This document shows, in pieces, positions 26,864 to 43,370 of a DNA stretch of 64,000 nt (positions are counted from its first letter, which is position 1; every line of letters starts with the position of its first letter). The position numbers and the translations under genes are program-made. The stretch is from IMG/VR virus record IMGVR_UViG_3300011559_000001, positions 96,001-160,000 of that record; one strand, written 5' to 3'. Under the pieces are notes generated by a model. It was given only the letters and a program-made list of their open reading frames with translations, did not search any database and was not told the origin of the DNA. The DNA is from a virus (taxonomy: Duplodnaviria; Caudoviricetes).

Positions 26864-29800
26864 ATGTTCAAGATTCTCCGTCTGTCCGAACAAGGGTTCT
26901 CCGCGAACCCCGGACTCGGGCAGTATGTGACCGTGCGCACTGGCTCCGGGGAGGGCGAGGACGCATTCGGTCACGTCCTGCTCGGTGATTTCCGCACGTT
27001 CATGACCCAAGTGGTCAATACGCGCATCGACGACTTGGCTGATGAAGTAGCCAACAACTCCGGTCCTTCGATCTGGCCGGTGGCGCGAACGCTGACGTTG
27101 GGTGGGCTGGTCGGTGGTTCGGTGAGCTTTGATGGCTCGCAGAACTTCTCGCTGGTCACCACTGTCGAAGACGGTGCGCTGTCGATCGCTAAGACCGCAG
27201 GCTTGCAAGCGGCGCTGGATAGCAAGTTGGCCACCACTGGCAACGCTGCTACTGCCACGCGTTTGCAGACCTCCCGCAATATCGCCCTGACCGGTGTGAT
27301 CACCGGTACGGCCAGCTTCAACGGCTCGGCCAATGCGTCCATCGCTACGAGTATCGCCGATGATGCGCTGACCTTTGCCAAAGTCGCAGGTCTGCAAGCA
27401 GCTCTGGATGGTAAGGCCTCGCTGAGTGGCGCCACCTTCACCGGTTCGGTGTCCATGCGTGGTAGCACGGTCGACATCTGGGCTGTGGACACCAACACCA
27501 ATCCGGGCGTGACCGTTCGTGGTAATGCAGGGTTGGAGCAAGGCTCGCTGATCTGGGACCGCACCTCCGACTCGATGCGTCTGCGTCGTGCTTCGGCTGA
27601 TGGCGCGACCACTGAAGGTGAATTGGCTGTCTACGGTGATCGGGTCTCGTTCAACGGTGCCACGCTCTACCATACCGGTAACTTGAATGCCCAAGCCCTG
27701 AGCTATCTCTCCGCTTCGGTCACCGAGTATGCCTCCGGTGCCGGTGGGGACTGCAACAGCTTTGCGGCCGGTACCAAGAACCTGGTGCACAACACCAACG
27801 CCAATACCCCGGGCTCCAGCTCGGCGTACTGGTACATCGAAACCCTACTGGCTGGCACCAGTACCAACTCGCTGATCCAGCGTGCGTACTCGGCCAGTAT
27901 CGATGAGCATTACTTCCGTCGTTGCACGGCCGGTGTGTGGTCCAACTGGCGTCGTCAGTGGAACTCGGGCAACTTTGATCCCACCAGCAAGCTGGACAGC
28001 AATGCCGTGGCTGCTTCGGCCACTAAGTTGCAGACCGCACGCACGGTGGCATTGACGGGCAGTGTGACCGGTACGGGTACCTTTGATGGTACTGCGAACC
28101 TGTCCATCGCCACAACCATCGCTGACGCTTCGCTGTCGGTGGCCAAGGTCTCCGGCCTGCAGACCGCATTGGATGACAAACTCTCCATTGGTCAGTACGG
28201 CGTGGGCGGTTCGGTTGCCAACTACAACTGGGCTGCCGAAGTACGTCAGTCGCAGTTCGCTGTGGGCACCACCGGTTCGCCGGAGAGCGGCAAGAACTAC
28301 ATGGGCATGCACGTGGTGCTCAACCACGCTGACTACTATGCTCTGGACGTGGTGGGTCGCAACAACAAGCTGTGGTTCAAAACCGTGGAGTTGGGGACGC
28401 AAGGTTCGTGGCTGGAGGTTTACCACACCGGTAACTTCAACCCGAGCAACTACACCCTGACTACCCGTTCGGTTCTGGCCGGTAGCGGCATCACTGGTGG
28501 TGGTACGTTGGGATCGGATGTCACGCTCACGCTGGGTACGCCCAGTACCTTGAGTGGGTCCACCACCAATGCCGTCACCGCAGGCTCGCATACGCATGCC
28601 CTGAGTGCCAACCTGAAGGCCTGGGACGCGATCACGGTCGCTTCCAAGTTGGATGCAAGCGCTACTGCCGTTGCAGCGACGAAGCTCGCTACGGCGCGTA
28701 CAGTGGCTCTGACGGGCTTGGTGACGGCCACCGGTTCCTTCGATGGGACGGCCAATCTGTCGCTGGCTACCAGTATCGCCGATGCGGCACTGAGCATTGC
28801 CAAGGTCAGTGGTTTGCAGACCGCACTGGATGCACTGGCACCGAAGAACAACCCGACCTTTACCGGTACGGCGCGGTTGAATGGTGACCTGTTGCCCGAT
28901 GCGGACAACACCCGTTCGCTGGGTGCGCCGAACCTGATGTGGAAGGACGTGTACATCGGCCCCGGGTCACTGTACATCAACGGTCAGAAGGTGCTGGAGG
29001 ACAACTCCGGTACGATTCGCATGCTGGCCGATCCGAACCAGAACATCGCCATCCAGACCAGCGGGTCCGGCGACATCGAACTGGCCCCCACCGGTACCGG
29101 TGTGATTCAGATGAAGGGTACGCTGTCGTTGTTGGGTGGATCCAAGATCCGCTCCTCCAATGGCGCTGCCCTGCTGTTTGATGATGACATCCAGTTCACC
29201 ACGGGCACCGGCCTGGTCGGTACTCCCACCGTCAATGGCTTCAACATCTACCACGCCGGTAATCTGGACCTGAGCACCAAGCTCGACGTCACTGGTAACG
29301 CCGCAACGGCGACGCGCCTGTTGACGGCACGCAACATTGCCCTGACGGGTATCGTCACCGGTACGGCTTCGTTCAATGGTTCGGCCAACGCCTCCATTGC
29401 AACGTCGATCGCCGACAACGCTTTGACGATCGCTAAGGTCTCTGGTTTGCAGACTGCGCTGAACACCATCGGCACCACGCTCGATGGCAAGCCCGGTTCG
29501 TACTACCTCAACACCGATCAGATGACGGCAGGTGCAAACCTTTCGCCCAATGGTTCGTTTGAGAATCGCTCGCCGATCAACAACGATCGTCCGCAGTACT
29601 ACGCACTGGGTGGTACGGCCACCGGTCGCAGTAACTCGTTCGTGCCCTCCTCGGTGGGTCCGGCAGGTAATGCGTTCCGCATGGATGCCAGTACCGTCAC
29701 CGCAGGTCAGTACTTCGACATCCGCTTGGACATCAGCGATGGCGACGTGCGTCCCACGGCAACCCCCAAGCGCCGCTATGTGGCGTCTACGGACTTCCGT

Positions 29801-32800
29801 GGTACCGTCGGCGGTACGTTCCAGATGTACATCCAGTTCTACAATGCTGCGGACGCTGTGATCGCTACGGTCACCTCGCCGGAATACGCCGCCAGTGAAG
29901 ATTGGCAGCGGGCAACGTGTTCGGGTGTGGCACCGGCACTGGCTGTGAAGGTGCGTGCGTATCCGGGTCGTCTGTACAACAAGGGTAGCTCCACGCTGGC
30001 CATGTTCATGGAAGTGGACAACCACATGCTGGCCGAAGGTGATGTGGCAACGAACTACATGCCGCATGCCAAGGACACCTACACCGATGGTGAGGTCCTG
30101 GCCAAGCTGTTGACTGTGGACGGTGTGGGCTCGGGTCTGGATGCGGATCTGTTTGGTGGTTTGACCACTGCGCAGTTCATGCGTTTGGATGCGGGCAACT
30201 CCGGTAACTTGCGCATCAACTCCGGTGACGGTCGCGGTGTTCGTTTCTGGGACAGCGATTCGTACAAGATCTACATGTCCGCTGCTGATACGGCAGGGTG
30301 GGGTGGTCGTCTGGGTGAAACCACGTCCAACCACAACATGTACTTCCGTATGGCTGGCGGTACCAACCGCGGCTTCGTGTTCGGCAGCGACACCACTCCG
30401 GTGTTTGCCATCAATCCGACCGGGGTGACCTCGGCGGTGAGTGTGACCGCACCGTCGTTCGTCGGTAACGTGCAGGGCGCCACGACCGTCACGGTCAACA
30501 ATCCGTCCAATACGGCAGCCAATACCACTTTGGGTTACACCGCCAACGGACCGCGTCTGCGTATCGGCGGTTCAGGCACGGGTGCTGATGCCACCTTCAC
30601 CATCGAAGGCGTCAGTGACTTCAAGCGCATGTCGCTGGACAAGAACGGTAGCGTCGTGTTCCCGGGTTCGGTGACCGCAGGCAGCTTCATCGGTAACATC
30701 AGTAATGCTGATTCGGCCGCTAAGCTCGCCACGGCCCGTACGATCGCCCTGACGGGCGTCGCCACCGGTAGCGCTAGCTTCGATGGTTCGGCTAACGTGT
30801 CGATCGCCACGAGCGTTGCAGACGGCTCTCTGAGCATTGCCAGCACCTCCGGGTTGCAGGCTGCGCTGGATGGCAAGATGGACAACGGCGCCTTCGGCCT
30901 GGGTACGGTCAGTGGTGGTTACAACTGGGCCAGCACCGAGCGCATCTCGCGCTTCACCGGTGGCTTGACCAATGGCCCGATCGCTGACACCAGCGTGATG
31001 GGTTTCCGCTCCACGCTGAACAATGCGCAGCTCTACGCCGCCAGCTTTGTGGGTCGCAACAATCGTGCTTTCTTCCAGACGATTGAAAACGCCACGGTGC
31101 AGGCATGGAACGAGCTGTACCATACCGGTAACTTCAATCCGGCTGACTATCTGTCCAGTGGCCGCACGGTCACTGCAGGTAACGGTCTGACTGGTGGTGG
31201 CGCACTGACGGCCAACATTACCCTGACCATGGGTACGCCGGGTACACTGAGCGGTAGCACCACCAACGCTGTGACCAGTACTTCCCACACCCATGCCTTG
31301 AGTGCAAACTTGAAGCTGTGGGATGCCCAGGTCCCCACCAGTTACGTTGCACCGTCGGCCACCAAGCTGGCCGCAGCGCGTACGGTGACCTTCAGTGGTG
31401 ACTTGGTGGGTAACTACAGCTTTGACGGTAGTGCTGATCAGACTGCCTTCACGCGTGTGCGTTCGGTTGCCCACGGTGGTACGGGCACGGCCTATGCCAA
31501 CCAGTGGACGCGTATCTGCCGTGCGACGCTGATGGCACAGTACGAAGATGCGGCCATCAAGTTCTTGATGCTCGGTTACGGTGACGGCTCGACCGCTCCG
31601 CGTCAGGCCACGGTGTTGTTCCGTGTCAAGCAGCAGAACACGCTGCCGGCACTGCCGTATGTCAACGTGGAAGTGGAATCGCAGAACTACCTGACCCCGG
31701 ATGCTTTCGTGGCGGTGATTGGCGACACCACGTCCTACCCGATCACGGTGGACCTGTATGTCAAGATGGCAGCTACGTACTCGGGTTTGAAGAGTACGGT
31801 GTTGGCGCGCGGCGGTAGCCGTACGTTGGACATGCTCGACGCCGATGGCTACATCGCCACGCTGCCGGAAGGTACGCAAGTGGTGGGTGAGCGGGTTAAC
31901 CTGCGCATGTACACCAAGGCGCTGGAGATCACCGATACGCTGTCGGTGGGTGCCATTACCGGTACGGGTGACAACACCTGGACGGGCACCAACTACTTCA
32001 ACGCGCCTAACACGCACTTCGGTGCTACCAACACGGGCAACACGATCCTTGAGATCGGTGGGCGGGCTGGTACGGCCACCACGGTCGGACTGGACTTCCA
32101 CAGCAGTGGCAGTAACAACGACTTTGACTCGCGCATCTCGGCAACGGGTGGTACGGGCACCAACGGTGCAGGTAAGTTGACGGCCTCGGCTATCGACTTC
32201 GGGTTCACCGGTACGGTGACGCTGGTCAACGACAAGCTGCTGTACTTCGGCTCCAGTGGTGCAGCCATGCGCGGTACCAGCACGGGTAGCATTGTGTTGG
32301 CTTCGGGTGTGGGCGCTAGCGGTAACGTCTACCTGCGTCCCAACGGCGAATCCAGTACCACCGGACAAGCTGTGGTCTACACCAACGGTGTGTTGGATGC
32401 CAACAGTCTGAAGGCCAATAACTCCGGTGCTGGCGCAGTCATGCTTGAGCTGTCCGGCGAGCGTGCGTGGCAGTTCCGTCAGTCGGGCACTGCAGCGACT
32501 TCGGCACTGGAACTGTTTGACGTCACCGGCGGTAAGCGCTTTGACATCACCTCGACCTCCAGCAGTAACAAGGTCTCCATTGACCCCAACGCTTCTCGCG
32601 TGTCGGCCAATGAGTTCGTCGGTTCGCTGACCGGTAATGCCAGCACGGCCACCAATGCATCGACGGTGGGCAATCTGGCGGCGGGTTCGTTCCTGCGTAG
32701 CGATTCCACCAACAGTGTTGATGTGCGTTTGGCATCTGGTGACGGTCGTGGTCTGCGGTTCTGGGACAACGACAATTACAAGATCTCCATGAGTGCGGCG

Positions 32801-34384
32801 ACCACGGCTAACACCGGTGGTCGGATCACGGGTGAAACCACCTCTGATTACAACATGTACTTCCGCATGTCCTCGGGCACCAATCGCGGTTTCGTCTTCG
32901 AGGCTAGCAATGCCAACAAGATCTTCGCGATCAACCCCAACGGCGTTCGGTCGGTTGTGGGTATGTACGCTCCGGGCTTCACCGGTCCGCTGATTGGTAA
33001 CGCCGACACGGCAACCAAGCTGGCTACGGCCCGCACGATCAACGGTGTCAGCTTTGATGGCTCGGCTAACATCACCATCAATGCCGCATGGGCCGGTGGT
33101 AATGTCAACAATGTGATCAACATCTTCAACGGTACGATCAACTCGCAAGCGTCGTTGTTGACGTTGGGTTGGGGTACCGGTTCGACACGATGGGCGCATG
33201 TGTTTGAAGGCGACGCTACCTACTCGCTGTACTCCTACAACGCTAGTGGTGGTAATCCGTTGCGTGTGGCATGGTTTGCCAATTTGGCCGGCGGCGGCAA
33301 TAGCTTCTCTGCATTCGGCGTTGAAGGTGGTATCCGCACCCAAGGCGCCAGCGCAGGGCTTAACGTGGCTGACCGTACCGGTGGTAGTAATGGTGATTGG
33401 AGCATCTACGCTTCGGATCAGGCGCTTCGCTTCTGGTACGGCGGGACGGGCGCCAGTGATAAGGTCTCCATCAGTTCCGGTGGTGAGGTGGGTGCTCAGC
33501 GTGCACGACTGATCGCTGAAGCGCCGCTGCACTTTACCTTCGGCAATGGCAGTTTGTCGCGCATCTACGCATGGGGTACGGGTGGTGCAGGCGATGACAT
33601 GTTCAACGTCTTGCGCAATGGCACCAGTAACTACAACCTGTTCTGGAACGGCAACATGGAGGCGTCCAACACGCTCCGTGTGGGCAATCAACTCTACCTC
33701 AACGGTGGTTGGTTCCGTACCCAGCAGTCAGGGTGTGGTTGGTACCACGAAGTCCATGGTGGTGGTTGGTTCATGCAGGATAACACCTGGATCCGAACCT
33801 ACAACGGCAAGGGTGTCCTGATCACCGGTGCCTCCGGCAATGACGGTGGCCTGCGTATGGAAGGTCCCTCGCCGACGGTCACCTTCTACGATACCGACAG
33901 TGGTCGTACCAACTGGCTGCACTGCAATGACGACAACATTGGCTTCCTGGCCAGTAACTCGTTCTCGTGGGCAACCTACCGCAACGGCAGCAACGACTGG
34001 GTGTGTATCGGTAACATCGTGGGCTACTCCTCCGATGAACGCCTGAAGCACCACATCTACAACGTGGACCGTGCGATCCCAACGGACTTCTTTGACCGCT
34101 TCGTGGTCCGGGAATTCGACTGGAACTACGACGCCATTGCGGAACTGAATCCCGACTTCAAGCCGATTGCCGACCACGAGGTCGGTGCCGTCGCGCAGGA
34201 GGTCGAGAAGGTCTATCCGTTCATGGTGACCACGCACGAGCACACCGGCATCAAGACGATCATGTGGGACAAGGCTGTCCCGCTGTTGATCTCTGAGGTG
34301 CAGGAGCTGCGCAAGCTCAAGCCGGTCGTTGACGAGCTGCTCCAGCGCATCGCGGCGCTGGAGGCCAAGACTGGGGGTGGCTAA
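26864..34384 (+). CDS. Giant (2506 aa) long tail fibre with C-terminal S74 autochaperone
   Basis: Six full shaft modules, several YH.GNFNP knobs, SHTH motifs, a CBM-like NLSPNGSFE domain, SDERLK and GAVAQEV; AAGGA RBS. Confidence 0.9.
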   Translation: MFKILRLSEQGFSANPGLGQYVTVRTGSGEGEDAFGHVLLGDFRTFMTQVVNTRIDDLADEVANNSGPSIWPVARTLTLGGLVGGSVSFDGSQNFSLVTTVEDGALSIAKTAGLQAALDSKLATTGNAATATRLQTSRNIALTGVITGTASFNGSANASIATSIADDALTFAKVAGLQAALDGKASLSGATFTGSVSMRGSTVDIWAVDTNTNPGVTVRGNAGLEQGSLIWDRTSDSMRLRRASADGATTEGELAVYGDRVSFNGATLYHTGNLNAQALSYLSASVTEYASGAGGDCNSFAAGTKNLVHNTNANTPGSSSAYWYIETLLAGTSTNSLIQRAYSASIDEHYFRRCTAGVWSNWRRQWNSGNFDPTSKLDSNAVAASATKLQTARTVALTGSVTGTGTFDGTANLSIATTIADASLSVAKVSGLQTALDDKLSIGQYGVGGSVANYNWAAEVRQSQFAVGTTGSPESGKNYMGMHVVLNHADYYALDVVGRNNKLWFKTVELGTQGSWLEVYHTGNFNPSNYTLTTRSVLAGSGITGGGTLGSDVTLTLGTPSTLSGSTTNAVTAGSHTHALSANLKAWDAITVASKLDASATAVAATKLATARTVALTGLVTATGSFDGTANLSLATSIADAALSIAKVSGLQTALDALAPKNNPTFTGTARLNGDLLPDADNTRSLGAPNLMWKDVYIGPGSLYINGQKVLEDNSGTIRMLADPNQNIAIQTSGSGDIELAPTGTGVIQMKGTLSLLGGSKIRSSNGAALLFDDDIQFTTGTGLVGTPTVNGFNIYHAGNLDLSTKLDVTGNAATATRLLTARNIALTGIVTGTASFNGSANASIATSIADNALTIAKVSGLQTALNTIGTTLDGKPGSYYLNTDQMTAGANLSPNGSFENRSPINNDRPQYYALGGTATGRSNSFVPSSVGPAGNAFRMDASTVTAGQYFDIRLDISDGDVRPTATPKRRYVASTDFRGTVGGTFQMYIQFYNAADAVIATVTSPEYAASEDWQRATCSGVAPALAVKVRAYPGRLYNKGSSTLAMFMEVDNHMLAEGDVATNYMPHAKDTYTDGEVLAKLLTVDGVGSGLDADLFGGLTTAQFMRLDAGNSGNLRINSGDGRGVRFWDSDSYKIYMSAADTAGWGGRLGETTSNHNMYFRMAGGTNRGFVFGSDTTPVFAINPTGVTSAVSVTAPSFVGNVQGATTVTVNNPSNTAANTTLGYTANGPRLRIGGSGTGADATFTIEGVSDFKRMSLDKNGSVVFPGSVTAGSFIGNISNADSAAKLATARTIALTGVATGSASFDGSANVSIATSVADGSLSIASTSGLQAALDGKMDNGAFGLGTVSGGYNWASTERISRFTGGLTNGPIADTSVMGFRSTLNNAQLYAASFVGRNNRAFFQTIENATVQAWNELYHTGNFNPADYLSSGRTVTAGNGLTGGGALTANITLTMGTPGTLSGSTTNAVTSTSHTHALSANLKLWDAQVPTSYVAPSATKLAAARTVTFSGDLVGNYSFDGSADQTAFTRVRSVAHGGTGTAYANQWTRICRATLMAQYEDAAIKFLMLGYGDGSTAPRQATVLFRVKQQNTLPALPYVNVEVESQNYLTPDAFVAVIGDTTSYPITVDLYVKMAATYSGLKSTVLARGGSRTLDMLDADGYIATLPEGTQVVGERVNLRMYTKALEITDTLSVGAITGTGDNTWTGTNYFNAPNTHFGATNTGNTILEIGGRAGTATTVGLDFHSSGSNNDFDSRISATGGTGTNGAGKLTASAIDFGFTGTVTLVNDKLLYFGSSGAAMRGTSTGSIVLASGVGASGNVYLRPNGESSTTGQAVVYTNGVLDANSLKANNSGAGAVMLELSGERAWQFRQSGTAATSALELFDVTGGKRFDITSTSSSNKVSIDPNASRVSANEFVGSLTGNASTATNASTVGNLAAGSFLRSDSTNSVDVRLASGDGRGLRFWDNDNYKISMSAATTANTGGRITGETTSDYNMYFRMSSGTNRGFVFEASNANKIFAINPNGVRSVVGMYAPGFTGPLIGNADTATKLATARTINGVSFDGSANITINAAWAGGNVNNVINIFNGTINSQASLLTLGWGTGSTRWAHVFEGDATYSLYSYNASGGNPLRVAWFANLAGGGNSFSAFGVEGGIRTQGASAGLNVADRTGGSNGDWSIYASDQALRFWYGGTGASDKVSISSGGEVGAQRARLIAEAPLHFTFGNGSLSRIYAWGTGGAGDDMFNVLRNGTSNYNLFWNGNMEASNTLRVGNQLYLNGGWFRTQQSGCGWYHEVHGGGWFMQDNTWIRTYNGKGVLITGASGNDGGLRMEGPSPTVTFYDTDSGRTNWLHCNDDNIGFLASNSFSWATYRNGSNDWVCIGNIVGYSSDERLKHHIYNVDRAIPTDFFDRFVVREFDWNYDAIAELNPDFKPIADHEVGAVAQEVEKVYPFMVTTHEHTGIKTIMWDKAVPLLISEVQELRKLKPVVDELLQRIAALEAKTGGG

Positions 34385-34854
34385 TGGCCATCCCCACCTC
34401 TGGTCAAATCAGCTTCGGTGACTTCCTTAACGAGTTCGGTGGGGGCACGCCGGTCTATTTCAGCCAGATGTATCGTGGCGGTCCGCGTGTTCCCAACAAC
34501 TCGGCCAACCAAGGCGTCCCCACCAGCGGTACGTTGTACCTCTCGCAGTTTCGAGGTGCAGCTGCCTCAGTGGGTTCTCCGCTGTCGGTCACCGCACCGA
34601 ACGTGAGTCGTGTGGTCAACAGCGGTACGGCCACCGGTAGCTCGGTAGCCAGTGCCTCCGGTGGTTCGGGTGGTTACACCTATACCTGGACCAACGGTAC
34701 GCCGGGCGCCAACTTCAGTTCCAATGGTGCAACGGCGACTTGGTCGTCCCCCTCGAGTCGTTCGGGTACGGGTACGGTCACGGTACGCGACTCCTCCGGT
34801 GCAACGGCCTCCTACCAGATCTACGTGGATCTCACGGTGGGTCGTCCGGTTTAA
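34384..34854 (+). CDS. Putative fibre-tip adhesin 1
   Basis: TAATG overlap with the fibre stop; MAIPTSGQISF...FGG...YRGG..VPN...PTSG...SQF.G N-terminal domain; S/G/T-rich Ig-like C-terminus. Confidence 0.75.
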   Translation: MAIPTSGQISFGDFLNEFGGGTPVYFSQMYRGGPRVPNNSANQGVPTSGTLYLSQFRGAAASVGSPLSVTAPNVSRVVNSGTATGSSVASASGGSGGYTYTWTNGTPGANFSSNGATATWSSPSSRSGTGTVTVRDSSGATASYQIYVDLTVGRPV

Positions 34855-35361: not shown

Positions 35362-35838
35362 ATGGCATTGGGTACGAATCCGAGTTTCTCGCAAGTGCGC
35401 GCGTTCTTTGGAGGGTCTGCGAATCTAAAGGACTATTATCGTGGGGGACCTTACGTACCCAATATCCCGGCGAACAACGCCATCTCCACTACAGCCGCTG
35501 GATTGCGGTTGACCCAGTTTACCGGCGCTGACAAGCAGTCGAACTTCACCTGGAGTGTGAGCCCGAACATGTTCCGGGTAAACAACTCCACTGCGTGGAC
35601 AACGCAGGCGTTCACCATCACCACTTCCGGAGCGACCGGAGCGGTGACCTATGCAATCGAGCTGTATCCGCAATCGGGGATGCTGGCCAATGTCATTTCT
35701 GGTAACGGCACCGCCAACCCGTCCGTCCAAGCACGCCGACAGGGTCAGGAAGTCAGTGGCGAGGACAGTTTCATTCGCTTCAAGGTCACGCACGCTGGTG
35801 TCACCACTAGCGTTGACGTGCAGATGTACTTCGGCTAA
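35362..35838 (+). CDS. Putative fibre-tip adhesin 2
   Basis: Same N-terminal domain (FGG...YYRGGPYVPNIPANNAI...QF.GADK); GGAG RBS; distinct beta-rich C-terminus. Confidence 0.75.
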   Translation: MALGTNPSFSQVRAFFGGSANLKDYYRGGPYVPNIPANNAISTTAAGLRLTQFTGADKQSNFTWSVSPNMFRVNNSTAWTTQAFTITTSGATGAVTYAIELYPQSGMLANVISGNGTANPSVQARRQGQEVSGEDSFIRFKVTHAGVTTSVDVQMYFG

Positions 35839-35900: not shown

Positions 35901-36479
35901 ATGGCTTTAGGTTCTAACCCCAGCTTTTCCCAGATCCGTGCTTTCTTTGGTGGGTCGAATAACTTCAAGGATTACTATCGCGGCGGCCCGTACGTCCCGA
36001 ACATTCCTGCCAATAACGCCATCCCCACCGGTCCTGCGGGGATGAGCATGCGCCAGTTCTCTGGTGCTGATAAGAACACCGCACCTCCCGTACCGAACTT
36101 TGGTGATGCCAGTGCGTATGCTGACCTGTTCGTCAATAGTGCGGGCGGCGGCAGTTGTAACGCCTACGTCGAACTGCACAACAACGGTCAGGTGTATTCG
36201 TATTCCTCGACCAATGGTGCTGGTTATGTCTCCACCTGGCTGCCCAGTGGTCGCTCCCCTGGCGAGTACATGGCCCGACGTAGTTTTGACAATGGTGCGA
36301 CGTGGGAAGGCTGGCAGTCGCTGGCGTCCACGTACCTGTGTGTCTCGGCCAATGCGTGGTCCGATGGCTTCTACAGTGAACAAGATAGCCAGGTTGCGCT
36401 GGTGCAGATCGGCTATGGTGGGAATGTCCAAGCCCAAGCTAACTTCTACGCCACCGCCTCGGCCAACGGTCGCGGTTAA
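35901..36479 (+). CDS. Putative fibre-tip adhesin 3
   Basis: First 41 aa are 37/41 identical to adhesin 2; unrelated aromatic-rich C-terminus. Confidence 0.75.
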   Translation: MALGSNPSFSQIRAFFGGSNNFKDYYRGGPYVPNIPANNAIPTGPAGMSMRQFSGADKNTAPPVPNFGDASAYADLFVNSAGGGSCNAYVELHNNGQVYSYSSTNGAGYVSTWLPSGRSPGEYMARRSFDNGATWEGWQSLASTYLCVSANAWSDGFYSEQDSQVALVQIGYGGNVQAQANFYATASANGRG

Positions 36480-39280: not shown

Positions 39281-39892
39281 TTACAGTGCTTGTAGCTGGA
39301 AGTGCACCGGGGTCTTCTTGATGGCCTTGGCCACCTGCGACAGGATCGCAGTGGGTTCACGGTAGGTACCGTATTCCTTCATGTAGTCCGTTTCCAGACG
39401 GCGCTTCTTTTCCATGCGCTTCTTGCTCTGGCTCCATCCGAAGATGCCCCACGCACGCACGGCCAGGAACATCACCGTACGTTCAAACAGGTTCACCCCG
39501 GCCACCTTCATCGCATCGCGGAAGATGTGATCGGCCTTTTTACGACTGACGGTGACGGGCACCTCGTTGTGGAACATGGTCTTACCTTCGCACAGGATGT
39601 CGTGCAGGACAGCAGCCTGGCCGTAACGGCCCCACGGCGGCAGGATGAACCACAACGGCTTGGGCACGCTGGCACCATCGGTGAGGAAGCCTGCCGGGAT
39701 ATACGCCCAGACATCACGGTTCTCAACATCCAGGTAATAGCGGAAGGACTTGGTGACCTTGTAATAGGCCTTGCCCAACAACTCCGTTGCGGCTTGGTCT
39801 TTCACCACTTCCAACTCTGCGTCGAAATTGGTGAATGCCTCAGCGGCCTGCAGCAACGTGGCCGTGGGGACATAAGGTGTTTCGATGTTCAT
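39281..39892 (-). CDS. DUF1353 family protein
   Basis: IPAGFLTDGASVP..LW...PP.G.Y..AAVLHD.L...RKKAD.IF..AM...AVR..G; GGAG RBS before ATG 39892. Confidence 0.88.
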   Translation of the reverse strand: MNIETPYVPTATLLQAAEAFTNFDAELEVVKDQAATELLGKAYYKVTKSFRYYLDVENRDVWAYIPAGFLTDGASVPKPLWFILPPWGRYGQAAVLHDILCEGKTMFHNEVPVTVSRKKADHIFRDAMKVAGVNLFERTVMFLAVRAWGIFGWSQSKKRMEKKRRLETDYMKEYGTYREPTAILSQVAKAIKKTPVHFQLQAL

Positions 39893-39904
39893 TGAATGCT
39901 CCAC

Positions 39905-39938
39905 GGAATAAGAAACCGGGGAGGTTACCCTCCCCGGT
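39905..39938 (-). terminator. Rho-independent terminator after the Hint-domain gene
   Basis: ACCGGGGAGG / CCTCCCCGGT stem (39915-39938), followed on the minus strand by TTCTTATT. Confidence 0.7.
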
Positions 39939-39945
39939 GTTTGCC

Positions 39946-41283
39946 TTACTGGATTTCCTTCACCACCGTTGCGTTGTGAGTGGCGATACGACGATCGCCC
40001 TGCTCACCTGCAAAGTAGCTCTGGTCATCAACGTTGAACAGGACCACATCACGCACACCGACGAACTCGATATGCACAACCGGTTCCCAACGCAGCTGAC
40101 CACGGTCGTTGACGAAGACCTCTTCGTTGAGCATCTCCGGACCGAACATCTTGTTCGTACCATCGCGCATCGTCATCGGGGTGGACTCCGAAGCAATGAT
40201 CGAGATACCCGAACGGGTGGTCAGGCGGTAGCACGGCTGCGGCATCACTGCGTTGGCACGGACTTGACGCGGGACCATCGTGTCCGGCTCGTAAGCCGAA
40301 CCGTCAATCCAGTCGCCAATAGCAATGTCCGAAGCCAACCGCTCTTCGTCCATCCACATGGTCGTTGCCACGCAGCCTCCGCCACCACCACCGCCTCCGC
40401 CCCCTCCGCCACCACCACCGCCTCCGCCACCACCTTCGGGGGTGACGATGTCAATGTCGTTGAACTCGTTGACGAAGTTGAACAGGAAGCGGAAGTTGTT
40501 GACGACGTTACCGTTGCGCTTGAGCAAGACGCGGAACCAACCGCGGTTGTAGATGCGCAGCACCGCATTGGGGTCGCGGAAGTTCGAGTTATTGGACAGC
40601 GTGGTCATGTCCAGATTGAGCAACAACACGCGGTCTTGATTCAACGGCATGTCGTCGCCGTTGCCAGAGGTGACCATGGTGGTGTTGTTGAACGCACCCG
40701 GCGGACCCGGCTGCCATTCCCATTGGCCAGGACTGTTCCCGTTGCGCGGAATCCACCAACGACCCGACTCGAAACTTTCCAGCCCGTAAGAGATGGTGTA
40801 GTTGTCGCCGAAGTTGTCACGCGGGTTCTGTGCCCAGTTACCATTACCCAAGACGCGACCGTCCGGATACAGGTACCCGATCTGACCACCACCGGAACGC
40901 ACCACCAATGCTCGGTAGTTGCGGGTCATGTGCCACAGTTCCCACGAACCGTTGCGCCGGAAGGTCAGGCGCAACTGATTGGTGTTGTGGGCCACGTGCC
41001 AAATGACCGACGGGCAGCTGGACATGACGTTGTCGTAACTGCCGATGTCGCCCATCGCATTGGTGTAACCTACCGTGCCTTTACCGGCCCAGTAGTTGGT
41101 GACGTCCGGGCCGGTGATGTCGTAGTAACCCACGTCGGCAATCTTGCTACCTGCCGAGAGCGGAGCGTAGCGCATCAGCGAACCGTCAGGGCGGTAGTAA
41201 CCGAAGAGCTGGGGACCGTTTTCGTCCGGTTCGAACAGGTCGTCAAAATCCCAACCTGCACCATTGTAGTAAGCGACAGCCAT
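39946..41283 (-). CDS. Putative fibre-tip protein with a Gly20 linker and C-terminal Hint (intein/hedgehog-like) domain
   Basis: GGAGG RBS just after the fibre stop; N-terminal DFDDLF...RYA....GSK.ADVGY...WA.KGT domain; 20 Gly codons (40375-40434); CVATT...IGD.I...CYRL.T.SG...V..IE.VG...V....V....YFAG...THN Hint pattern. Confidence 0.85.
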   Translation of the reverse strand: MAVAYYNGAGWDFDDLFEPDENGPQLFGYYRPDGSLMRYAPLSAGSKIADVGYYDITGPDVTNYWAGKGTVGYTNAMGDIGSYDNVMSSCPSVIWHVAHNTNQLRLTFRRNGSWELWHMTRNYRALVVRSGGGQIGYLYPDGRVLGNGNWAQNPRDNFGDNYTISYGLESFESGRWWIPRNGNSPGQWEWQPGPPGAFNNTTMVTSGNGDDMPLNQDRVLLLNLDMTTLSNNSNFRDPNAVLRIYNRGWFRVLLKRNGNVVNNFRFLFNFVNEFNDIDIVTPEGGGGGGGGGGGGGGGGGGGGCVATTMWMDEERLASDIAIGDWIDGSAYEPDTMVPRQVRANAVMPQPCYRLTTRSGISIIASESTPMTMRDGTNKMFGPEMLNEEVFVNDRGQLRWEPVVHIEFVGVRDVVLFNVDDQSYFAGEQGDRRIATHNATVVKEIQ

Positions 41284-41294
41284 CTTGGGCCTCC

Positions 41295-43370
41295 TTACTT
41301 ACTTTCCAGCGCGGCCAGGCGGGTCAACAGCGAATCGATCAGGATCTGCTGCTGTGCCACCTTTTCGTGCAGGCGATCGGTTTCCACACCCACGGCGTAG
41401 GCCATTTCCATTGCCAGACCGGTGTTGTTCACCGCCAGACGCTTGGACTTGCGCTTCACGCCGTGATCGTACTCGATGACCAGATCCGGGGCCACCTTCT
41501 GCAGGTCCTGTGCAATCGGGCCAACCTGGTGTTCACCGGTCTCCCGCATGTTCCACTGCTTGAAGTCAAACCCGCGCCACAGAGGACGTGCCTCGATCAG
41601 GCTGATGTTCTTCTTCAGGCGCTTGTCGGAGGGCTGGAAACCCTGACCGGCAATTGCACGGCCGTTGTGAACCACGAAGTTGCCGCCGGCTTGGAACTGG
41701 AAGAACCGCGAACCGGCCACGCGCAGCGAGATCGAACCATCGCCATCCTGATACAGGTAACCGGAGTTACCGATCACCAGCGTATTCAGGGTTGCGTTGG
41801 AGCCAGTGATCACACGATCGTTGATCTGTGCCTGCAGCGGGTTGTAGGCGATGGCGACGATGGCCTGACGCGTACGCAGCGGTGACATGAACAGGGTGTT
41901 GGAACCACCCGACTCGGCATTGGCCTGATCGGACATGCCGTAATTGGGTACGTTACCCAAACCGACCTGCGCAGCCGTGGTGTTGTGCGGGTTATCGCTA
42001 CGGTTGATGTGCGCATTGAGCGAATTGGTCAGCGGGGTCACCGCTTGCGAGGTGATCGCTTCCTTGGTCCGCAGCGGGGTCATGTACGTGGCATTGTCCG
42101 TACCGGTCTGCGCTTGGGCAGTGGTGGCAATACCGTAGTTCTGCACGTTCCCCAGACCCACCTGTGCTGCCGTGGTGTTGTGGGGATTGTTGGTGTTGTT
42201 GATGTGCGCGGTGAGCTGGTCGCCGGCCACCGACTGGATCAACGCACGTGCACCGGCAGGGGTCACGAACAGGTTCGTGGCCGTACCGGCAATGGCTTGG
42301 GCATTGGTAGCCGTAGCGTAGTTGTCGACATTGCTCAGACCGACTTGCGCCTTGGTCGTGTTGTGCGGATTATCCACACGTGCAATGTGCGAGTTCAACG
42401 GGGCCAGTGCCAGTGCCGTGATGGCCGCACCGGTGAGGGTGGCGGTCATGTACGCTTCACCCACACCCGCCTGGGCCTGTGCCGTGGAGGCCAGACCATA
42501 GTTGACCACCGAGCCCAAGCCGACTTGCGCCTTGGTCACGCCGTGCGGGTTGTCCGTACGAGCGATATGTGCATTGAGGGAGTTGCCCACCTGAGAGGTG
42601 ATGGCTTCCTTGGTGCGCAGGGGCGTCATGTACAGCACGTTGGAGGTGCCGGTGGTGGCGTCGGCCGTGGCAGCAATGCCATAGTTCAGAACGCTACCCA
42701 GGCCGACCTGTGCCTTGGTGGTGTTGTGCGGGTTGTTGGTGTTGTTGATGTGGTCATTGACCAGCGAGTCCATCGAGGTGATCAGGGCACGCAGTTCGTT
42801 GTCCTTCAGGTCGATGTACTGACGAAGTTCATCAAACGCGGCCTGGTCGCCCAGCAGGATCGCACGGCGGATCTGTTCGAGCACCGCCACCAAGTACTCA
42901 AACCCGTACACATCACCGATGTCATGCAAGTGAGCGGTGGGCGGGAAGTACTCGGGGGCACCGATGATGTCGCCCCAGTTGACGGTACGGTTGTCCAGAT
43001 CCAGACCATCGAGCATCTGCGCGATGGCCGTGACCGAAGCGGAGTATTCACCGCCCACTGCCTGGTAGTCGATCTCGATCTCGGTGGCGCGACACGCCGG
43101 CAGGATCAGAACGACCGAGCAGATTTCCTGACCTGCACGAAGCGAGGCTTCGATGAACAGGTGGACCGGACGGTAGTCGACGTCCGGGGCCAGAACGGCC
43201 CCGGTCGAACGGTTGCGCACGATCATTCCACGAGTGTAGAACGGACCGCGAGTGGTGACGAAAGCTCGGTTCCCGGTAGCCGCCACGGTGTGACGCTCGG
43301 TCACCACCTTATTGGTGGCGGCCACACCGGAGAGGTCGAGCGGGAGTTGAATTACGGGAGGGGTACTCAT
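41295..43370 (-). CDS. Tail fibre (phiKZ gp145/146-like N-terminus) with five NPH repeats and an S74 autochaperone
   Basis: LPLDLSG...NKV..E.H...GPFY...YQAVGG...PP..HLH N-terminus; five NPH.TT.AQVGL repeats; SDKRLK and GPIAQDL. Confidence 0.85.
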   Translation of the reverse strand: MSTPPVIQLPLDLSGVAATNKVVTERHTVAATGNRAFVTTRGPFYTRGMIVRNRSTGAVLAPDVDYRPVHLFIEASLRAGQEICSVVLILPACRATEIEIDYQAVGGEYSASVTAIAQMLDGLDLDNRTVNWGDIIGAPEYFPPTAHLHDIGDVYGFEYLVAVLEQIRRAILLGDQAAFDELRQYIDLKDNELRALITSMDSLVNDHINNTNNPHNTTKAQVGLGSVLNYGIAATADATTGTSNVLYMTPLRTKEAITSQVGNSLNAHIARTDNPHGVTKAQVGLGSVVNYGLASTAQAQAGVGEAYMTATLTGAAITALALAPLNSHIARVDNPHNTTKAQVGLSNVDNYATATNAQAIAGTATNLFVTPAGARALIQSVAGDQLTAHINNTNNPHNTTAAQVGLGNVQNYGIATTAQAQTGTDNATYMTPLRTKEAITSQAVTPLTNSLNAHINRSDNPHNTTAAQVGLGNVPNYGMSDQANAESGGSNTLFMSPLRTRQAIVAIAYNPLQAQINDRVITGSNATLNTLVIGNSGYLYQDGDGSISLRVAGSRFFQFQAGGNFVVHNGRAIAGQGFQPSDKRLKKNISLIEARPLWRGFDFKQWNMRETGEHQVGPIAQDLQKVAPDLVIEYDHGVKRKSKRLAVNNTGLAMEMAYAVGVETDRLHEKVAQQQILIDSLLTRLAALESK

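Follow-up and report, generated by a model that had tools for sequence, protein, structure and literature searches.

The window is a stretch of 64,000 nucleotides from a 310,882-bp record (a 311-kb phiKZ-like phage) in which a phiKZ-type major capsid gene is present. The gene of a 445-aa adhesin with a predicted C-terminal Hint domain is located at 41283-39946 on the minus strand, and its start (as called from the ORF) lies 11 bp past the stop of the gene for a 691-aa S74 fibre. The product comprises an N-terminal cap, a variable beta-sandwich, a run of 20 glycines, a domain of 134 aa from Cys to His-Asn and an Ala-led tail of 8 aa. A first-pass annotation, made from the letters alone, had placed the gene, the 11-bp gap, the Gly20 run, the Cys, the His-Asn and the tail in exactly these positions. 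The module of Gly linker, Hint domain and Lys-containing tail occurs in one copy in the 310,882-bp genome. Closest isolates are the Xanthomonas jumbo phages RTH11 (72% identity over the protein) and LucasX (54%), and gene order is common to the locus and to both. Since the nearest isolates are Xanthomonas phages with equal gene order, a host within the Xanthomonadales is presumed. A terminator-like hairpin (39915..39938, scored on both strands) stands directly 3' of the adhesin gene; LucasX carries an annotated terminator at the equivalent place. The next gene (39281..39904, minus strand) encodes a DUF1353 protein by a Pfam-level domain call. It was considered as a part of the module and rejected, because it adjoins Hint-bearing and Hint-less orthologues alike. 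Outside the window, 14 tRNA genes form a cluster that spans the two ends of the record (493-1395 and 302444-310764).

The upstream gene (41295..43370, minus strand) encodes a trimeric tail fibre with a C-terminal S74 chaperone, recognised by Pfam S74 and PHROG tail/virion matches. Pfam Peptidase_S74 covers fibre residues 581-631 (E 2.6e-10). From what is generally understood of S74 chaperones, the cut presumably falls near Ser581 (41630), leaving a mature fibre that ends at about residue 580. The motif of the fibre tip is kept in seven homologues. No Lys occurs in the mature fibre beyond residue 436 of its 580. The first 80 residues of the adhesin (41044..41283, minus strand) form a predicted fibre-binding cap, indicated by phrog_11610 (match over aa 3-121), by three repeats at a spacing of 24 residues (aa 3-10, 27-34 and 51-58) and by a model of the complex. 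Three fibre-tip chains (residues 511-580) and adhesin residues 1-80 were given as the input. In the model each repeat touches a single fibre chain at its final residues, just short of the predicted S74 cut. The prediction, built on the author's own alignments, scores 0.82 (best control 0.01), against a mark that is reached by 58 of 80 solved pairs and 2 of 110 mismatched pairs and that likeness to solved complexes can help to pass. At least 70% of contacts agree between runs, and partner pLDDT is no lower than 61; a score of 0.04 came from one run of the three. A monomer of residues 1-80 seated on the processed end of the fibre trimer is supported by this model, short of proof. Its binding is modelled as non-covalent.

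The position of the gene had been likened to that of T-even gp38, and adjacency and the cap model both bear this out: in each system the gene lies right after a chaperone-processed fibre, and here the product is modelled as a monomer capping a trimer. The adhesin appears to differ from gp38 in its modelled beta-sandwich body and in its glycines, which make up one linker and no polyglycine-helix sandwich. That gp38 is absent among the N-part fold matches listed (generic sandwiches, best Z 6.2) is weak evidence. The beta-sandwich (about aa 72-283; 40435..41043, minus strand) is modelled by AF2 with a pLDDT of 82.5, has only non-specific Ig/pilin-like fold matches and is 30-65% identical among orthologues. 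It is the probable receptor-binding domain. Three small phrog_30374 paralogues (34384-34854, 35362-35838 and 35901-36479, plus strand) follow a 2506-aa S74 fibre (26864-34384) elsewhere in the window. Their N-terminal motif differs, and they are possibly alternative caps for the 2506-aa fibre.

The Gly20 flexible linker (aa 284-303; 40375..40434, minus strand) is encoded by exactly 20 Gly codons of mixed type. Gly303 is the -1 residue of Cys304. This is the sole run of more than six Gly in the whole genome. An assembly artefact is unlikely, because the isolate RTH11 carries a Gly run of about equal length at the equivalent place. Among 152 homologues it is the longest run; their Gly/Pro/Ser-rich linkers vary in length, and GG stands directly before the Cys in 44/152. 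The -1 residue is Gly in 49, Trp in 30, Asp in 9 and Tyr in 9 of 136 homologues. Gly20 stands at the far end of a range of linker lengths, and with -1 Gly in only 49/136 a ubiquitin-like Gly-Gly end is not the conserved feature. The ubiquitin-like Gly-Gly terminus of the first-pass annotation is not supported by these counts. Depletion of Lys in the Gly linker (Lys in 15/152) was dropped as evidence; Arg is depleted there too.

The Hint domain (aa 304-437; 39973..40374, minus strand) was delimited by a structure model and a homologue alignment. It starts at Cys304 (40374) and ends at His436-Asn437 (39978-39973), as read from the ORF. The AlphaFold2 model is all-beta (pLDDT 91.4), and its top Foldseek match is the C. 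thermocellum BIL domain (E 7.7e-7). In VIA the top 32 rows are all Hint domains, with Z 18.2 against NpuDnaB (rmsd 1.8, 131 aligned), Z 17.5 against hedgehog and Z 16.2 against Tetrahymena BIL2. On its modelled fold the domain belongs to the Hint superfamily, as had been proposed. Across 136 homologues no Hint model of Pfam or NCBIfam passes (the best E with Pfam Hint is 0.099), the PHROG search gives no Hint in the 445-aa protein, and a single-sequence PDB search with the domain returns a spurious match only. Because the family is invisible to Pfam and NCBIfam, many phages may have mature tail-tip proteins whose ends differ from the annotation.

Mean column identity over 136 sequences is 33%, yet Cys304, Thr368, His436 and Asn437 never vary, a sign of selection on both junctions; the Cys and His-Asn of the earlier proposal are thereby found conserved. 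The position of Cys351 is C/S in 131/136. By profile alignment to gp41-1 and NpuDnaB, block B reads S365-E-S-T368, with Thr at the block-B His position in 136/136, and residue 415 takes the F4 position, which is Leu in the window protein, Lys/His/Arg in 92/136 and Asp in 0/136. With Thr in place of the block-B His, and Leu at F4 where a basic residue might compensate, N-activation may be slow. SEST in block B had been read correctly, and the caution that N-cleavage could be slow or absent stands. The +1 residue is Ala438 here and mostly Ala/Ile/Pro/Val in the family (Ser/Thr in 19/136, Cys in none), in line with the earlier reading that a +1 nucleophile is absent. A catalytically dead Hint, kept in the subclade of the window as a passive terminal domain, would fit the lack of block-B His, F4 Asp and F4 basic residue. 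Dead copies can persist: the Xanthomonas phage PhiXhv-12 keeps a stand-alone Hint-family paralogue without first Cys and His-Asn (L003 7423-7842; hhalign probability 97%), directly after its Hint-bearing adhesin. The four key residues and the tail Lys are nevertheless intact in the subclade while surface positions diverge, and a dead domain is considered highly improbable.

The 8-aa tail (39949..39972, minus strand) contains a single Lys, Lys442 (+5; 39960-39958). This residue, absent from the first-pass annotation, is as conserved as the catalytic residues. Aligned tails contain Lys in 136/136 and exactly one Lys in 135; over all retrieved modules, short tails contain Lys in 156/156 (about 22 expected) and a second Lys in 3 (18.5 expected), counts that overstate independence because the homologues are related. 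Bias from the query should be small, since most phmmer alignments end before the tail Lys. Ordinary ORF ends have Lys within the last 5-6 residues in 17-24%. Arg does not take the place of the tail Lys. The offset of the Lys ranges from +1 to +9 (+1 in 4/136, seen in prophage copies too); it is penultimate in 101/136, often as Lys-Pro, and follows the C-terminus more tightly than the Asn. The tail is disordered in the model (pLDDT 57). A separate scan of IMG/VR DNA used Gly-run-Cys motifs alone, with clusters at 60%. It found the tail Lys, mostly at +1/+2, in 15/15 terminal Hint-like clusters (called by motif, not by fold), at least 7 of which have an intact TxxH. Prophage copies of the module agree on the tail Lys, and each spacer of tandem Hint-Lys-Gly-Hint units retains a single Lys. 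No Lys is found in the tails of Hint-less Gly-linker proteins. Lys47, Lys68 and Lys255 of the N-part were considered as acceptors and rejected, as they swap with Arg in homologues. Tandem Hints with a short Lys-plus-Gly spacer end fibre/virion proteins at L010 8001-12683 and at L066. At L017 6380-9510, and at L271 with L274, two adjoining tail genes each have their own Hint-Lys module.

Several known systems share parts of this arrangement. In BIL2 of Tetrahymena BUBL1 the acyl group is reported to be transferred to the Lys epsilon-amine of a downstream ubiquitin-like domain without E1/E2 (PMC8616854). BIL2 (PDB 6Y75/6TMM) and the window Hint have a common fold (Z 16.2, rmsd 2.5, 137 aligned, 9-10% identity), and both have a downstream Lys available as acceptor. 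They differ in that BIL2 has ubiquitin-like exteins, a retained catalytic His69 and regulation by Zn, whereas the window module has a phage adhesin as its N-part, an 8-residue peptide as its C-part and Thr for His. The A-type BIL of C. thermocellum (PDB 2LWY; PT-HINT) likewise has a Cys start, a His-Asn end and a variable, non-nucleophilic +1, and both types are placed in variable surface proteins or regions. PT-HINT and Hint_2 nevertheless miss the window Hint, and 0/136 members pass the profile. The window type is set apart further by block B of the form S-x-x-T-P, by its position always near the terminus, by its single-Lys tail and by its occurrence at phage tail tips. Class 1 mini-inteins (NpuDnaB, gp41-1) are similar in fold (Z 17-18), Cys1 and His-Asn; unlike them, the window Hint lacks Cys/Ser/Thr+1, block-B His, F4 Asp and endonuclease, and lies outside any conserved enzyme core. 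Like hedgehog (fold Z 17.5), it sits at the C-terminus, behind a functional N-terminal domain on which its predicted self-processing would act; it has no sterol-recognition region and retains His-Asn for C-cleavage. Overall, the domain is similar to A-type BILs, and its mode of action is probably that of BIL2.

In the proposed mechanism the monomeric adhesin would cap the end of the processed fibre trimer through its three N-terminal repeats. The Hint domain would convert the Gly303-Cys304 peptide bond to a thioester by an N-S shift. The epsilon-amine of Lys442 would then stand in for Cys/Ser/Thr+1 and take the acyl group as an isopeptide, and cyclisation of Asn437 would release the Hint. The expected product is a Gly20-ended adhesin joined side-on to an 8-residue peptide with free amino and carboxyl ends. 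Lys-isopeptide self-splicing of the capping adhesin, in which every chemical step is deduced, is given about an even chance of being correct. The floating offset of the Lys (+1 to +9) and the unordered tail fit a tethered nucleophile, and attack by Lys442 is presumed to proceed in cis rather than in trans. Poor alpha-amine residues at +1 (Ala/Ile/Pro/Val) and the lack of F4 Asp fit Lys as the acceptor. The most likely purpose of the splicing would be a blocked, branched C-terminal appendage of the tail tip, alternative to the Gln/acidic tails of Hint-less orthologues. The main fact that splicing through Lys442 leaves unexplained is the tight spacing from Lys to C-terminus; a Lys near the C-terminus would be just as consistent with another factor that recognises the tail end. 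The benefit of a branched 8-mer is not obvious, and orthologues manage without the module. Cross-linking of fibre subunits was considered and rejected, as the thioester is single-use and the tail is on the Hint side, which would leave no permanent link, and as the protein is modelled as a monomer.

In a different order of steps, C-cleavage would come first and the alpha-amine of Ala438 would then carry out linear splicing, with Lys442 left free for a later cross-link (e.g. to Gln-rich tails). Work by Dassa from 2004 reportedly concerns splicing of BILs without a +1 nucleophile, which would favour it, as would the enrichment of Gln in the tails (47, 23 expected) and the Gln-rich tails of Hint-less proteins. 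Against these points, 68/136 have Pro, Ile or Val at +1, and an 8-mer freed first would diffuse off; linear splicing is regarded as very improbable.

Removal of the Hint as a plain self-shedding cap, by hydrolysis and Asn cyclisation at both ends, would make the Lys merely catalytic, as in the Tko CDC21-1 intein, in which the block-B His is absent yet the intein works, with a Lys offsetting the loss. BIL domains without a +1 nucleophile are reported to give mostly cleavage products (PMC7664689). A trimmed adhesin would probably be functional, because the orthologue P0006 stops at precisely the expected start of the linker. However, the Lys is just as constant where the TxxH of the Hint is intact, so it is not merely a patch for the lost His; its register varies and Arg does not replace it; and shedding needs one cut, yet both junctions are invariant. 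Simple shedding is thus held to be rather unlikely, and isopeptide splicing through Lys442 is preferred.

With the last 142 residues as query, 609 clusters (50% identity) were matched, in proteins of 100-3400 aa whose N-parts sort into 26 groups. The central tail fibre J accounts for 11 of 35 large carriers; phiKZ-type fibres that have PKD domains, and VlrC of DLP6, are carriers too. Four states are seen at the orthologous locus: the Hint type of the window; a second Hint type, 24-28% identical, which sits in a sister extein (tree support 99/97); a Hint-less Gly linker that ends in a short Gln/acidic tail; and no extension at all, as in P0006, which stops at the linker position in two assemblies. 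Unrelated N-parts with the same module also occupy the slot. Because syntenic orthologues lack or swap it, the module is, as judged from these comparisons, evidently mobile, exchangeable and accessory. Hint-less relatives at L007 838-1674, L047 3986-4921, L042, L043 and L055 have a Gly-rich linker and a short tail that lacks Lys and in most cases is rich in Gln/Glu/Asp, a motif possibly with a function of its own. No Hint-less relatives of J were found among isolates.

The thioester could instead be held for an outside nucleophile (a virion protein, a small molecule or a host amine), with the tail Lys as latch or helper. Modules at the distal tips of unrelated tail parts (J, phiKZ-type fibres, VlrC) and the long flexible linker would suit such a role, the missing block-B His could slow the self-reaction, and BIL2 conjugates to Ras in trans too. 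An invariant cis amine on a flexible tail should, however, win over amines from outside; the 8 aa past the Hint hold no conserved recognition domain, no Lys lies near the fibre tip, and syntenic orthologues lack the module. An outside nucleophile is considered unlikely, although still a candidate. Self-ligation as raised in the first-pass annotation therefore survives in part: acyl transfer is plausible, with BIL2 as a precedent, whereas an outside nucleophile as the default is not supported, since the protein supplies its own invariant Lys. Ubiquitin-like attachment to the fibre, also raised there, is unlikely, because Gly-Gly is unconserved, the fibre tip is without Lys and the module is accessory. 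The non-covalent cap model speaks against a covalent link to the fibre as well.

Patchy, swapped distribution (5/401 genomes of the order containing Dyella) would fit an arms race in which the tail is a decoy for Bil-type Ubl conjugation by the host, the exposed tail Lys accepting the Ubl and the Hint then shedding it. Bil-type Ubl conjugation targets the central tail fibre. An extra Lys would help a decoy, but a second Lys is depleted, and carriers include myophage caps that are not known as Bil targets. A decoy role is judged quite improbable, and acceptance of the acyl group by Lys442 within the same chain remains the preferred reading.

If Lys is the acceptor, these modules would constitute a large natural family of domains of about 135 residues that splice via a Lys side chain. 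BIL2 is, to our knowledge, the one published example of such splicing. They would offer a compact, ATP-free route to site-specific isopeptide links of the ubiquitin type, with many -1 residues tolerated. In the literature, subscription-only papers aside, no description of a phage Hint-Lys module was found, and the main texts on LucasX and XacN1 contain nothing on Hint-bearing ORFs. The locus of the window contributes the modelled cap-on-fibre geometry, the series of four orthologue states and cultured relatives. Cultured Xanthomonas phages (RTH11, LucasX) make the question directly testable, since orthologues at this one locus bear Hint type 1, Hint type 2, a Gln tail or no such extension.

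In L-K-I-J gene clusters the motif scan also shows Hints that interrupt tail assembly protein I, past its ubiquitin-like domain, or J, about 20 residues from its start (L060, L079, L102, L107 and L116; L065, L070, L074, L078, L081, L096, L101, L120, L131 and L135). The insertions in J have a duplicated Gly-rich motif, with the Hint just upstream of Gly-Lys-Gly. In gpI the insertion point is the Gly-rich junction past the ubiquitin-like domain, and gpK-like genes are kept where checked. Cleavage by gpK at this Gly-rich junction of gpI was proposed by Iyer et al. (PMC1779556). From this comparison, Gly-rich scissile sites close to a Lys may be a recurrent trait of tail tips. A broader joint reading takes the Gly-linker/Hint modules as a widespread enzyme-free Lys ligation on phage tail tips, coupling their own tail and, on a trigger, virion proteins or the host surface. 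The module would then be a covalent phage anchor, and the Gly-rich Hint sites of gpI/gpJ would share its chemistry. This joint reading is considered unlikely. At L073, L086, L095, L106, L098 and L109, non-Hint C-terminal domains of phage proteins, about 100-130 aa long, likewise start with a Cys directly behind a Gly run. Those of L098 and L109 may resemble the CFI-box-CTERM domain.
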